From IMG/VR virus record IMGVR_UViG_637000207_000006: 64,000 nucleotides of DNA, one strand, 5' to 3'. The stretch comes from a virus. Positions 9,174 through 16,776 of this stretch are shown here, one piece after another. Under the pieces are notes generated by a model that searched no databases, was not told the origin of the DNA, and saw nothing but the letters and a program-made list of their open reading frames with translations. Positions within the stretch are counted from its first letter, which is position 1. Each line of letters begins with the position of its first letter. Both the position numbers and the translations under genes were made by a program.

Positions 9174-10046
9174 TTAATTGGTTAGTTTAGGAATGACGAC
9201 CTGCCAACCACACCCGCAATTGATTTCTTCACCAGGCATGATCCATTTTCCGTCAATATAAAGCCCTTTTGATAAATCGAACTCTTTACCATCCGCTTTC
9301 AAGTGTGATTGACGAAATTTTTTTGCTGCATGACTGTGCCGCCAGATACCCGTTTTAAAACCCATTGAACGCTGCCGGGCAGATTGCATAACAAAAGTCG
9401 CTTTGTTGTTCTGGTCACGAGCAATCAGGACTGCTCGGCGCTTAGTAATGTCGTAACGCTCTTGCAAGGCTTTTGTCAACGTTCCAAGATCACGCCCCCT
9501 TGCTACTGATTGCATCACTAGCGTTTCAACTTGGGATAAATATTGCCGTGGAATACTTTTAATCAACCCAACATTCTCACCAATGACCGTCTGTAGCGCG
9601 TTATTCATTTCTGTCGTCATCGTGAACGGTATCGAAATATGTGCCGCATCTAACGCATGATTTAACGAGGCATCCATGTTGTCCATTGATAAAGCCGCGA
9701 ATTTTTTCGCCAGCTTGTCAGCTAAAGCATCAAACTGCTTTAACCAACGCCGGGTTAATTTTCGCATTGCTGAACGCATCAACATCTCCGGGCTAACATC
9801 CATTGCCATTGCTGCACCGCTGTTCTTATAGTTGGCGGATACCCAGTAAATCACCGAGTTATTCATCTCATCCACCAGCTTATATAACTGCTTGCTGTAC
9901 CACACCCGAACACCGGCATTAGGTTTAATTTGTCGGAGTGTTTGAAGGGGATCAGATGATGTTTTCCGTGTTGCCCTCTTCTTCGATGTCGTCTTCTTTG
10001 TCGATTTCATCATTGATTTCCAGAGAGTGATACGGGCTGTTTTCAT
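9174..10046 (-). CDS. Minor head morphogenesis protein (SPP1 gp7 / Mu gpF-like)
   Basis: IARDQNNKA and C-terminal PGEEINCGC motifs. Confidence 0.85.
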   Translation of the reverse strand: MKTARITLWKSMMKSTKKTTSKKRATRKTSSDPLQTLRQIKPNAGVRVWYSKQLYKLVDEMNNSVIYWVSANYKNSGAAMAMDVSPEMLMRSAMRKLTRRWLKQFDALADKLAKKFAALSMDNMDASLNHALDAAHISIPFTMTTEMNNALQTVIGENVGLIKSIPRQYLSQVETLVMQSVARGRDLGTLTKALQERYDITKRRAVLIARDQNNKATFVMQSARQRSMGFKTGIWRHSHAAKKFRQSHLKADGKEFDLSKGLYIDGKWIMPGEEINCGCGWQVVIPKLTN

Positions 10047-11457
10047 CGTTGGCTAGACGTTCGCGAGCTTCATCTGTGCTAATCACATTTGCAGCAATTA
10101 ATACTGAATCAGTATCTGCATCGGTCTTACGTATGCTGGCTTTTTGTTCATCATTCATTTGATACAGCGGTTCGAATGTAAAGCTAATATCAGGATCAAT
10201 TTCGCCAAATTCGGATAATTGAATAATATCAATCATTCGTGCCAATCCATCTTTCACTAACATTTGCAAGGTAGCAATGAAGTCATAGAAAACACGGATT
10301 TCCCCATCAGATGACGCATTTAGCCCGCTTGGTGTGATACCTGTAAAAATCACTAACGGTATGCTACTGACTGAACTCATATGTTCCTGAGACTGGGCTT
10401 GCAGTGAATCAAGGCCACTTAGCGGTGTATTGAACTGGAAAAACTCCTCTTCGTTATCCAGCATCATTACCCCTCGGTTATCACGCATCTTGTTAAACAA
10501 TTCTGCACGATAAATTAACTGATCGGGATTCTTCGTCTGTCCTTGCAACGTCGATTGAAGATTGGTTTTAAATCCAGACACAGAGAATGAATGGATCAAA
10601 TCAGATACGCTATCACGTGTCCTATACCAGTTTTGTACATAAGACTCTGCAATCTGAGTCAGTGATAAGCCGCCGAAATTATACGCAGGTTTAAACATAT
10701 CGGTTAATGGCCGGGTGATAAATGTAATCAAACGACTGTCATGTACAGTTTTTGCCATCACATACCAACTTGACGGCTTATAGAAATCATTGCTCAACGG
10801 GTTGCTAGCGTTATAAATCCCCGGATATGTCCATATTGGCTCAATGACGTTAAAGCCAATAAGACTCCCCTTTGTGATTTTTTTGGGTGACAGAAATAAT
10901 CTAGACTCAAGTTCAACCGGATCGGTTGCAGCAAGCACGCCTCTTGACGTGCGAACATCAATGTAAATCTGACCTCGCCCAAAAAAACCATCATGTTCAA
11001 TGGCTTTTTTTAACCGTTCACGAACGTGGAATTTTTCAATAGCCTCATTAAGCGCTTTGATTTTATCTGATTTGTCATTATCCCCCACTGACGTTAGCTT
11101 TATCCACTTACGAGTCATCTCCCCTGCAATAGTGCCGACCATTTTCCGATATTCGGGTAATTGTGACAGTTGGGCCAGATAAGGATAACCGGGGAAACCC
11201 ACATCTCCCGATATACCACCTGTACCCGTCATATATTCATAAGGTGTAGAATCCATTGCCATTAATGCGGATAACTGTTCAGTAGGAACAACACCGGGAG
11301 GGGGCCTGTATGGTTCAACAGGCCGAGCTACTTTTCTCTCTGTTATCGATCCGACAGTATCCGGATGTATGTTCATTGGCTGAGGTGATGCTTGATCAAT
11401 ATCCTGTTCAACTGGCAAAACCTCCGCTTTCTTTTTATGTCTGAATTTGAAAAACAT
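9952..11457 (-). CDS. Portal protein (DUF1073 family)
   Basis: Follows terL; [20 protein letters not shown] motif; likely start ATG 11457 (track ORF starts at 11586). Confidence 0.88.
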
Positions 11458-12640
11458 TAAATTCGCCCAACAGATTTTTAGATATACGAAGTGGGTTGTT
11501 TTTGCCTGTGATATAACCATCCAGCGAATAACGTACCGCATCCCATAAATGGTTATGTTTGTCGAGCACCACCGGCAGGATTTCACCGGTCAGTCGGTCA
11601 GTCTTGTATGAATAGAGTCTTGCCTCATCAATCATGTGCTTACAGCGTTCATGAATAATGATTTCTTCAAAGCCTTTAAGATAAGTGATCCCGTCCTCGA
11701 CACTTCCGGGCCATTTTGTGGCACCATCGATAACGAACCCCTGGCGTGATAAGTAACTGATAGTTTCCGGTCGGCTACTGTCCCCATGAATGGGCCATTT
11801 ACGAGAAAGCGGCACCGAATCATAGAACTGGGGCATTTCATCTAATTCAACGCCTACCCCATAGGCTTCATATTCGATATATAGTTTGGTACCAATAATG
11901 AAGCAGCGAACCAGTGTGGATGGGTCATTAGCGAAACCAAAGTCAGCTCCATAGAAAAGCCGGTCGGCTTCTAGCCATAGCTCATCAGAAAATGCTTCAA
12001 CCCGGTATTTTCCAGAGAAAATAACCGCTTCACTGAGTGCTTTTGGTAATCCAAGCCAAATATGCTCATACGCTTCATAATCGATGCGTTTGCAATATTC
12101 CATTTCCTGCCGGAGTACGTCAGGGAAAAAGGCGTTATCACAATAGTTAACTTTTCGAATAATAACGCCGCCGTCAGAGGGATCTTCCTGATGCCGGGTC
12201 ATCAGTTTGTATGTCGGGTCCTCTTCCTCGCGAGGGTTGAAAGAAACCCAGACTTCGGATTTATTAGCACGTACAGTTGGCCCAAGAATATCCCAACTAT
12301 CTTGCGAAACGGTCTGAGCCTCTTCAACCCAGCAGATCTTAATGCCATGCATCGACTTGATGCTTTGAATATTGTTGCGAAGACCTTTAAACGTGAAACG
12401 AGTGCCGTTCTGACCTTCAATCTCGTTGTTTTTGACCTTATAGAAGTGGGACAGTCCAAGATCAATGATTTGTGCCTCAAGCAGGGCAAGAACAGAATCA
12501 TTGATTGAGTTCTGGAATTCACGGGCACAAAGAATCGTCATTGGTTCTATAGCACCCAACAATACCAGCGCACGAGCAATCTCTACCGATTTACCGCCAC
12601 CACGCCCGCCATATGTCCAACGCCAGCGAACAGAACCCAA
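11435..12640 (-). CDS. terL: Terminase large subunit (PBSX family)
   Basis: Walker A GGRGGGKS, Walker B WVEEAQ, nuclease GADFGF...DAVRY. The only start is a weak TTG; the frame is open upstream through the terS 3' end. Confidence 0.92.
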
Positions 12641-12665
12641 TGCTCGGTCATATAAAACCTCTGTC

Positions 12666-12742
12666 GCCCAGTCACTACTAAAGGCGTACAGAACACCATC
12701 TATGATGACTGGGCTACCTGTTTTCCCTCGCGCAATTTCTCC
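12666..12742 (-). promoter_or_regulatory. Putative programmed -1 frameshift signal between terS and terL
   Basis: GGAG at 12742-12739, then 11 nt, G GGA AAA at 12727-12721, a 6-nt spacer, and a hairpin with a perfect 9-bp base GCCCAGTCA/TGACTGGGC (12714-12706 with 12674-12666). Confidence 0.72.
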
Positions 12743-13419
12743 ATGTGAGAAGCCCAGACATCAGCAGGACAATTGGCGGGAGTGACAATACAGACTTTGC
12801 CATAACTCAGGCCAGCGAGATCAACATTGACCTCAGTTTTATTGCTGCTCATGTCGATACCGGTAAGTTGCGCAGCGTTCTTAATGTTCGGCGCAACCTG
12901 TCCGAACTTCTTATCTGCTAACGCTTCCTTCCCAGCACGAAACGACAATTCAGCCAGGTGTCCAGCATTGAATGAAACAAGCAACGCCGCTTCGTTTCTC
13001 AGTTCTCGAATGCGGGCTTTTATTTCCGGTCTGCGTATCAATATGGATGATTGAGAATCAGCACGGGCTGGAGAGTAACCCGCACAAATTGCCGCCTCTT
13101 TCATCGGCATACCCGCCGCTATGTTTTGAGCAAACTGTTCGTATTGCGGCTTTAGAATCCCTGCGGTTCCTTGCGAACTCTCTGCGAACTTTTCAGACTC
13201 CAAGATATTACTGGTGTTACTTGCTACCTGACTTTCCGCTTGGTTCGCATCAGGTTCGCACTGCGTACTGTCAACAATAGTGCGAACCCATTCCTCAGTC
13301 TTTGCCCTCTTGCGGATTGCGGCATCACTAATACCGTACTTTTTGGCAATCTCCCTGATTGAGAGAAAGCCGGAACGGTAATCACGCTCTATTCCCTCCC
13401 AGTCAGTATTTTTTGCCAT
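12700..13419 (-). CDS. terS: Terminase small subunit
   Basis: N-terminal HTH ([26 protein letters not shown]) plus a second [11 protein letters not shown]; directly upstream of terL. Confidence 0.85.
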
Positions 13420-15208: not shown

Positions 15209-16108
15209 TTAAGATTGATTAACCTTTTTCTTAGAGTTTGTCCTGTATAATGTTTGAGTAATCTGCGAGGTAAAATAATCTTCATCCAGAAAACACAATA
15301 GCCTCTTAATGTGTTTTTTCTCTTGTGGCATTGCAATTTTCCTTTTGCCATTATCTTCGTGTATATCTAAATCAAAAACCACTCCATTTTCATTAGCTGC
15401 TGCTAATAAAGCATCCACAGTATAATTCTCTAAGACTCTTGATTTATTTATTAATGATACTTTCTTTCTTATTACCGTATCAGCAAGACTTGTAAGGTCA
15501 AAATTATTTGAAATATGGAAATGATCATGATTAGAAAACTCTCTTAAATCATCATCAGTGGCCTCTTTAAAATACCCATCAACATCGAATATTCGCCTCA
15601 ACATATGAAAACTTTTAAATTTTAATTTATTACCCTCAAGTATTGCGGTTAGCTTATTATCGATAATCAAACCATCAGAATCAGATAGCTTAAAGGTATT
15701 TTTGTCTTGAAGTATACTATGAAACAATGTTTTTTTATTATCTATTATTTGTCTTTTATCAAAACATTGAAGATAAGCTTTTATATTATCTTCTGTTTCA
15801 GATGAAGTAATTTCACCAGAAAACAGAGCCTTTATATTAAAAATAGATATCTCCTGCGGACTCCACTCTTGAATGGAGGTAGGCGTCTGAATTGCATCAA
15901 GAACACCTATAACATCATCAAAATTATCAATACAAAAATACTCCACAGGACTGGTAATATAACCACCACTAAATTCTACAGATGTCGTATAATTATTTTC
16001 AAAATATTCTTTTTGTTTTTTAAACAAGGCGTTTACAGATTTTTGCGTCTCTGAGTCTGTGACAATTCTCACAATTTTACTAGTGTCGGTTATAGCAAAT
16101 AATTCCAT
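15209..16108 (-). CDS. kwaB: Kiwa anti-phage protein KwaB (DUF4868)
   Basis: ~300 aa, C-terminal LCFLDEDY...LYRTNSKK and FKSFHMLRRIFD motifs; directly downstream of a KwaA-like gene. Confidence 0.82.
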   Translation of the reverse strand: MELFAITDTSKIVRIVTDSETQKSVNALFKKQKEYFENNYTTSVEFSGGYITSPVEYFCIDNFDDVIGVLDAIQTPTSIQEWSPQEISIFNIKALFSGEITSSETEDNIKAYLQCFDKRQIIDNKKTLFHSILQDKNTFKLSDSDGLIIDNKLTAILEGNKLKFKSFHMLRRIFDVDGYFKEATDDDLREFSNHDHFHISNNFDLTSLADTVIRKKVSLINKSRVLENYTVDALLAAANENGVVFDLDIHEDNGKRKIAMPQEKKHIKRLLCFLDEDYFTSQITQTLYRTNSKKKVNQS

Positions 16109-16127
16109 AAGTAATTTCCTTTTTGAA

Positions 16128-16646
16128 TTAAACAACAATGTATGTGTGAGCTGTTAGCTTTATAACATCTAACCTGTCGTTATTCACTAAAAATAAATCC
16201 CTTTTGGTAATCAATACAAAACTAATACCTGTCTCGCCCTCTGCTTCATAAAATTTATAACCGAAGAATGATAATAACGGATTAAAGCTATAACCTTCAG
16301 AGAAAGAAACATAAGCAAGCAAACTAATGTAAAAGAATGCAGCAATTTTCCAGTCAAAAAATGTCCCGGACGCACTAAGCAATGGAAATAAATATGTTAA
16401 AAAGTAATTAGTTACTTCTTTATTAGCTGGAGTAGCTGTTTTTATATTCTTTTTTGTTCGACCTGAATGATGAATAGAATATTTCAATATAATAATACAG
16501 AGAAAGACACTAATCACTCCTATAGTTATATACACACCAAGCATAATGTAGTTTTTTTGAATGAAAGCCAAATAAGCCAATGTGATGCATACAGGAGCCA
16601 CAGAAGTTGCAGTTAATGCAAAGCGAGCAAGTTTGCTTAAAAACAT
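16128..16646 (-). CDS. kwaA: Kiwa anti-phage membrane protein KwaA
   Basis: Four hydrophobic segments, YFLTYLFPL and FNPLLSFFGYKFY motifs; start ATG 16646 has a GGAGGT SD. Confidence 0.82.
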   Translation of the reverse strand: MFLSKLARFALTATSVAPVCITLAYLAFIQKNYIMLGVYITIGVISVFLCIIILKYSIHHSGRTKKNIKTATPANKEVTNYFLTYLFPLLSASGTFFDWKIAAFFYISLLAYVSFSEGYSFNPLLSFFGYKFYEAEGETGISFVLITKRDLFLVNNDRLDVIKLTAHTYIVV

Positions 16647-16776
16647 TTTCCACCTCCCTTCACCATAACTGTATAAAAAAACAGTATACATCAATTTAAC
16701 TCAAAACCGAATAATAAATTTATATTGATAAATAATGCCAATATATTCAAGAAAAAAACATCAGTTATTCAGATGA

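Follow-up and report, generated by a model that had tools for sequence, protein, structure and literature searches.

The terS-terL junction of the window

The window analysed here, a stretch of 64,000 nucleotides (nt) from the IMG/VR virus record IMGVR_UViG_637000207_000006, carries the adjacent genes terS and terL, which encode the small and large subunits of a phage terminase. This study concerns the junction between the two genes, where terL lacks a conserved start codon and appears to be entered by a programmed -1 ribosomal frameshift near the end of terS. The features of the junction are listed below by position in the window (ORF, open reading frame; aa, amino acids; SD, Shine-Dalgarno sequence).

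12700..13419, minus strand: terS, small terminase subunit, zero frame; ORF of 239 aa, 26.0 kDa
12721..12727, minus strand: slippery heptamer G GGA AAA (type X XXY YYZ), terS codons 232-233 (G232-K233), in phase with terS
12715..12720, minus strand: spacer of 6 nt between heptamer and hairpin; its length is constant in all junctions, its sequence variable
12666..12714, minus strand: predicted stimulatory hairpin of 49 nt, made of an outer stem (12714-12705 / 12675-12666) and an inner stem-loop
11435..12727, minus strand: terL frame as it would be entered by the frameshift; Walker A at 12610-12587, Terminase_3 (ATPase) and Terminase_3C (nuclease)
12641..12721, minus strand: 27 codons of the -1 frame without a canonical start, the conserved N-terminal segment of TerL; Phe at 12682-12680
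12689..12691, minus strand: CTG, the RefSeq TerL start in the close relative P0003 (= L008); in the apical loop of the hairpin, not conserved
12638..12640, minus strand: TTG, the sole canonical start before Walker A in the window; without an SD, not conserved

The match of TerS to the Pfam profile Terminase_2 is marginal (27.2 bits), its score lying just above the curated cut-off of 26.1; the identity of the protein is backed by synteny, terS being located directly 5' of terL, and by the annotation of its relatives as terminase small subunit. TerL matched both the ATPase profile Terminase_3 (E-value 7e-42) and the nuclease profile Terminase_3C (E-value 3.4e-15), contains the Walker A motif GGRGGGKS and has PBSX-family large terminases as homologues, in keeping with membership of that family. 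Its nearest relatives, 95-98% identical, are found in Photorhabdus species.

As the first-pass annotation of this DNA had reported, terL has no ATG or GTG start; its longest conventional ORF runs from TTG 12640, ten codons before Walker A, to 11435 and encodes 401 aa. Its frame is exactly -1 relative to terS and, as had also been pointed out, stays open upstream through the end of terS, from the stop at 12760 to that at 11435. No promoter-like site was found between terS and terL in a promoter and terminator scan.

The heptamer is followed, after the 6-nt spacer, by a hairpin with a base of 10 base pairs (bp), nine of them Watson-Crick and one U-G. The predicted free energy of this structure is -27.9 kcal/mol, compared to -15.8 +/- 2.7 kcal/mol for 200 dinucleotide shuffles (z-score -4.5), none of which folded as well. 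An SD-like GGAG lies 11 nt 5' of the heptamer (12742-12739, minus strand). A scan of positions 12400-13000 against Rfam returned only sub-threshold chance hits and no known frameshift element.

Conservation of the junction in related phages

Homologous junctions were collected by tblastn against phage records, by a scan of one genome per species, and from IMG/VR viral contigs and JGI metagenome contigs. The phage-record, species and IMG/VR searches yielded 62 loci of one clade, corresponding to 51 distinct junction sequences, to which the JGI contigs were additional. These 51 junctions, to which the counts below refer, come from Photorhabdus, Xenorhabdus, Serratia, Pantoea, Morganella, Escherichia, Providencia phage PSTCR3 and uncultivated viral contigs, representing at least seven genera, and TerL identity to the window goes down to about 75-77% within the clade. 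The element is present in 17 of 5,426 complete E. coli genomes. A megablast search of the window against the phage collection gave no match, tblastn being the search that found relatives, and a sample of 401 genomes of the same order contained almost none. Providencia phage PSTCR3 (L001, MW057855) is an isolated temperate myovirus (PMC8065852), and its genome has the same terS/terL junction, with an annotated TerL that begins after Walker A; the arrangement therefore occurs in an isolated and sequenced phage.

Alignment of these junctions showed that the heptamer, GGGAAA[A/G], is present at the same in-phase position in all 51 (GGGAAAG in 32, GGGAAAA in 19); it was also found in the additional JGI contigs. 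Its Gly codon is always GGA in the terS frame, while other Gly codons of terS use three or four synonyms across relatives. The codon preceding GGA is GAG, ACG or GCG, specifying three amino acids with a constant final G. Among the 27 upstream degenerate terS codons, none has an invariant third base, whereas both heptamer codons are invariant at that position, a pattern expected if the X XXY YYZ string itself is under selection. Downstream of the heptamer, terS stops within 0-6 codons of the Lys codon. In a Photorhabdus relative (L031/L006) it ends directly after the heptamer (GGA AAA TAG) and the terL-frame residues that follow are intact; the terS tail is therefore dispensable and the terL frame is the one preserved. 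The junction thus combines the in-phase heptamer, the open -1 frame with an early zero-frame stop and the synonymous-site constraint of a bacterial -1 frameshift site.

The limits of the terL frame point in the same direction. The last terL-frame stop before GGG is at codon -1 in 4 junctions, at -4 in 7, at -12 in 28 and at -16, -24 or -38 in the 12 others; between the heptamer and Walker A, the frame is free of stops in every junction. The stop immediately before GGG (L008, L057, L070 and L071) appears whenever CGT encodes a terS Arg. In 9 junctions no ATG, GTG or TTG at all is present from the last -1-frame stop to Walker A, and in 22, the window included, there is none upstream of an invariant Phe. 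Together, the invariant heptamer, the stops that never pass it and the lack of a conserved start support the earlier proposal that terS and terL are joined by a -1 frameshift.

The 27 codons between the heptamer and TTG 12640, which the first-pass annotation had taken for a linker, turned out to be the N-terminal segment of TerL itself. Read in the terL frame, they encode a conserved protein sequence and vary mainly at third positions. The Phe at 12682-12680 (F21, counted in the extended translation) shows no variation among 26 aligned TerL sequences, which include an ATG-starting sister clade, and the segment aligns to Sf6 gp2, a Shigella phage protein of solved structure, from residue 23 onward, the Sf6 gp2 chain beginning 22 residues further upstream. 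The TerL of the clade is a clear member of the PBSX/Terminase_3 group to which Sf6 gp2 belongs, the family profile hitting Sf6 gp2 at 1.5e-80 over the ATPase domain. An AlphaFold2 model of the extended TerL, computed from the 26-sequence alignment, had a mean predicted local distance difference test score (pLDDT) of 73.7, with most of residues 1-35 below 50; it is by homology that a structural role is suggested for the segment.

The downstream structure divides the clade. Subgroup A1 (30 distinct junctions, with the motifs SPV...DWA) keeps the hairpin of the window, with -26 to -33 kcal/mol for single sequences and -23.5 in an alifold consensus. In A1, third positions are invariant in the 3'-arm codons AGT, GAC, GCG and ACA and in the 5'-arm codon GTC, while neighbouring codons vary; in subgroup A2 (the other 21 junctions, SPT...DWV) those same positions vary freely, a contrast that argues for a structural constraint in A1. 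Five basal pairs are kept in all 51 junctions. As a stimulatory structure 5-9 nt from the heptamer, the full hairpin is a candidate in 30 junctions, the other 21 keeping just the 5-bp base. In an Escherichia-type sublineage (L035, L036, L038, L042, L009, L112, L114 and L120), which lacks the upper stem of the window, a different strong hairpin lies 18-70 nt past the heptamer (-26 to -29 kcal/mol, or -36 in an alifold consensus that adds a long-range stem around it) and shows two apparent compensatory changes between variants. The heptamer thus appears universal and the putative stimulators lineage-specific.

Outside this clade, a sister clade with about 65% TerL identity (Chitiniphilus, other Pantoea, Pseudomonas and phage WC36-2) differs at the C-terminus of terS, and its terL begins in the usual way, at an ATG with an SD some 27 residues ahead of Walker A. 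Phage WC36-2, in which the match began at residue 51, was considered as a second case and rejected on account of this ordinary start. An ATG of this kind, preceded by an SD and placed about 27-42 residues upstream of Walker A, is the start in both Sf6 gp2 and the sister clade; the present clade has lost it. The first-pass annotation had itself raised the case of an ancestral ATG at 12651 displaced by a local indel. The relatives do not bear this out: the ATG is a by-product of TAT-GAC (Tyr-Asp), absent wherever the Tyr codon is TAC.

TerS is conserved throughout the clade only from residue ~79. Its N-terminal helix-turn-helix (HTH) part is mosaic and has been swapped between lineages (the window compared with L001 and L009-L012; hits P0178-P0181), which would fit modular exchange of DNA-recognition specificity.

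It should be noted that some copies of the junction are decaying prophages. In Morganella psychrotolerans (L014), terS is split into two ORFs with the junction intact, and two metagenome contigs (L118 and L119) are remnants in which terS, the heptamer and about 20 terL-frame codons are followed by unrelated sequence.

Possible start codons for a separate TerL

The main alternative to a frameshift, improbable in our estimate, is non-canonical initiation, in which a separate TerL would start at CTG 12691 or at the Ile-Ile pair ATC ATA (12706-12701), possibly with a contribution from reinitiation after the terS stop. RefSeq does begin the protein P0003 at this CTG (the protein is given as MYAFSSDW where the L008 DNA reads CTG), both Ile codons are ATH in all 51 junctions, and L030 has an ATG at the CTG position. 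However, 13 of the 21 A2 junctions have CTT or CTC in place of the CTG, neither the CTG nor the Ile codons have an SD-like sequence at initiation distance, and in 30 junctions both candidates are buried within the hairpin of -26 to -33 kcal/mol. AUA and AUC are moreover, as is generally known, very poor initiators. This explanation also leaves unaccounted for the invariant heptamer with its synonymous constraint, and the open and conserved frame between the heptamer and the Ile codons.

Far less probable is a conventional start upstream, overlapping the end of terS. Gene callers start the 431-433-aa homologues P0004-P0008 at a GTG or TTG ten codons before the heptamer, and a canonical codon stands at this position in 37 of the 51 junctions (GTG 29, TTG 6, ATG 2; CTG in the other 14). 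Whether this codon can serve as a start depends, however, on a base that varies freely, the third of a terS Val/Ala codon. The window has CTG here, preceded two codons earlier by a TGA, and 11 junctions have a stop between position -10 and the heptamer; such a start is already contradicted for the window and for 22 of the 51 junctions.

We give as little weight to the explanation that TerL starts at TTG 12640 and works without the 27 residues upstream, whose conservation would then reflect RNA structure only. This TTG is the sole canonical start in the window, but the position reads TTA in the closest Photorhabdus relatives and ATC, ATA, GTC or GTG elsewhere, and it lacks an SD. A free TerL from TTG 12640 is unlikely because the codon is TTA, ATC, ATA or GTC in relatives. 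The codons upstream vary mostly at third positions, which indicates protein coding, and a TerL begun here would miss the entire 27-codon segment, including F21, invariant across the wider family, and residues whose homologues lie within the aligned Sf6 gp2 chain.

Least credible, and contradicted by the comparison with relatives, is a broken gene, produced by a frameshift mutation or a sequencing error in a decaying prophage: decay is real in some relatives (the split terS of L014, the truncated L118 and L119), but the same frame relation recurs in 51 distinct sequences from many genera and in one isolated phage, with no indels in the junction region and purifying selection on both sides of it. 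Transcriptional slippage was likewise rejected, the G3A4 string being far shorter than the runs generally known to cause it.

Database entries reflect the same difficulty. At least four incompatible starts are annotated for the TerL of this clade: the CTG, the GTG/TTG at -10, a GTG within the conserved SDWV motif (the E. coli RefSeq TerL of L120, NZ_AP027788, a junction at which RefSeq marks no slippage) and a Met past Walker A. Such disagreement is to be expected if ribosomes enter the frame by some route other than a start codon.

The predicted TerS-TerL fusion and its relation to known systems

Taken together, these results lead us to propose, with a probability of roughly 0.8, that a programmed -1 frameshift yields two products, a 26-kDa TerS and a 74-kDa TerS-TerL fusion, terS and terL being decoded as one recoding unit. 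Most ribosomes would read terS to its TAG and release the 239-aa TerS. A fraction would pause at the hairpin with tRNA-Gly on GGA and tRNA-Lys on AAA and slip back by one base, the tRNA-Gly re-pairing from GGA to GGG and the tRNA-Lys from AAR to AAA, after which reading would continue in the -1 frame through terL. The product would be TerS(1-233)-TerL, computed at 233 + 428 = 661 aa and 74.3 kDa, in agreement with the approximately 661 aa predicted earlier. The ratio of TerS to TerS-TerL would be fixed by the frameshift efficiency, as in Gag/Gag-Pol or IS3 OrfA/OrfAB. What the sequences show is the signal together with its conservation, and that alternative starts are lacking; that ribosomes do slip, how often they would do so and that the fusion is the working enzyme are inferences.

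In the fusion, the C-terminal end of TerS would lead straight into the ATPase domain with which TerL begins. According to reviews (PMC7617512), TerL is bound by a domain at the C-terminus of TerS and has its own ATPase at the N-terminus; the fusion would therefore join ends that normally meet. As no conserved start can supply the conserved TerL N-terminus, phages of this lineage probably have no complete TerL other than the fusion. A further-reaching proposal, to which we give even odds, is that the lineage has no free large terminase at all: every TerL would be the C-terminal part of a TerS-TerL fusion, the enzyme would be assembled from TerS and TerS-TerL at a ratio set by the frameshift, and a covalent link would hold the motor to the DNA-recognition ring.

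Several observations weigh against the proposal of a frameshift. The upstream GGAG, which the first-pass annotation had correctly located in the window and compared to the stimulator of dnaX, is not conserved: relatives have GGAA, GGAC, GGAT or GGCT in its place, so that an SD-like stimulator 10-14 nt from the heptamer, as in dnaX, is not a feature of the clade. The 49-nt hairpin, also correctly described in the window, lacks its upper stem, and thus its full form, in the 21 A2 junctions. Covariation, suggested earlier as a check on the stem, gave modest statistics: compensatory changes were found in two pairs (G-C/G-U/A-U and G-C/A-U). In E. coli, A AAA usually promotes less slippage than A AAG. 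In L030 (2501-2617; an IMG/VR contig with 97% TerL identity to the window), the CTG has become ATG, 12 codons past the heptamer and in the hairpin loop, with heptamer and hairpin kept, which suggests that a free TerL from the CTG position might be tolerated. No natural in-frame TerS-TerL fusion was found when TerL was compared with proteins of near or greater length and TerS with longer proteins and 1.84 billion representatives, weak evidence given the length and ranking limits of these searches; among the TerL hits, the long ones contain intein and homing-endonuclease domains of Pfam. Finally, no phage is known to us whose TerL is produced solely in fused form.

In its logic, the junction comes closest to the orfA/orfAB arrangement of the IS3 family. 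In this family (IS911, IS150), an A AAA AAG heptamer with a structure 5-6 nt downstream connects a short HTH ORF to a catalytic ORF in the -1 frame that lacks its own start; the trans-frame fusion acts as the enzyme, and slippage sets the ratio of products. The terS/terL pair likewise has a heptamer of the X XXA AAG type with a structure after it, and consists of an HTH ORF followed by a start-less catalytic -1 ORF. It differs in encoding terminase subunits and not a transposase, in using G GGA AAR in place of A AAA AAG, and in that the upstream SD is not conserved. The frameshift class that includes the IS3 type is covered by a recoding review (PMC5009743).

Two further systems share parts of the signal. 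The lambda G/GT genes use the same slippery G GGA AAG, also belong to a phage morphogenesis operon and make a long form at a fixed ratio; the gpG cluster G_GGA_AAG_4 is listed in the 2014 survey of E. coli heptamers by Sharma et al. (PMC4066793). By contrast, the G and GT products share a chaperone function, with G as the major one, whereas the terS/terL extension is a complete ATPase-nuclease that seemingly has no other route of synthesis. The E. coli dnaX signal has a heptamer, a hairpin after a 6-nt spacer and an SD-like sequence about 10-11 nt upstream, the last being matched in the window alone. The dnaX shift ends translation early and gives a shorter protein, whereas that of terS/terL would add 428 residues, and the SD is not conserved in the latter.

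Among terminases, the only recoding found in the literature is that of Streptomyces phage Hau3, where translational bypassing at UUA codons of terL has been proposed (PMC5009743, PMC10732093); it would take place inside terL, is not -1 slippage and does not involve terS. No description of a terS/terL frameshift was found in the recoding review (PMC5009743), the 2014 survey and its supplements (PMC4066793), PRFect (PMC10885494) or a 2025 frameshift preprint, an absence that holds within the literature searched and is no proof. The prophage clusters that were read in the 2014 survey are tail-assembly genes (PMC4066793). To judge from the sequences, the terS/terL junction carries a -1 frameshift signal of the classical kind, placed in a gene pair that is new for it and striking in function.

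The surroundings of the junction were also inspected. The head module around terS/terL is complete, with a Phage_portal_3 portal, a Mu F-like protein, a DUF2213 protein, a cement protein and a major capsid protein. The portal ORF (9952-11586, minus strand), if called from its GTG, shares about 150 nt with the 3' end of terL; its Pfam match starts only at residue 135 and the real start is probably further downstream. An E. coli homologue of this ORF is annotated as 'anti-CBASS protein Acb1 family', partial. On the other side, a 309-aa ORF (15209-16138, minus strand) matches Pfam KwaB, a Kiwa defence protein (E-value 5.9e-10), and is overlapped by a 188-aa ORF located upstream of it (16128-16694, minus strand) that has no Pfam match and could encode a partner of KwaB. 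These ORFs, located just 5' of the packaging genes, may form a defence system carried by the prophage.

The two-subunit terminase is a textbook enzyme. Open questions about it are the way in which TerS and TerL come together, their ratio, and whether TerS remains on the motor while DNA is packaged (PMC7617512). With the present proposal, the annotation of TerL in this clade, where four incompatible database starts now coexist and one of them omits Walker A, would have a common explanation in its entry by frameshift. As the element is present in E. coli genomes and in an isolated phage, the proposal is directly testable. If true, it would bring a new gene pair into the small set of -1 frameshifts in bacteria and phages that have an essential enzyme as the trans-frame product. 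Covalent joining would further fix the geometry of the complex, with the TerS C-terminus leading into the TerL N-terminus, would give a genetically tunable ratio of the subunits and would provide a defined complex for structural work.

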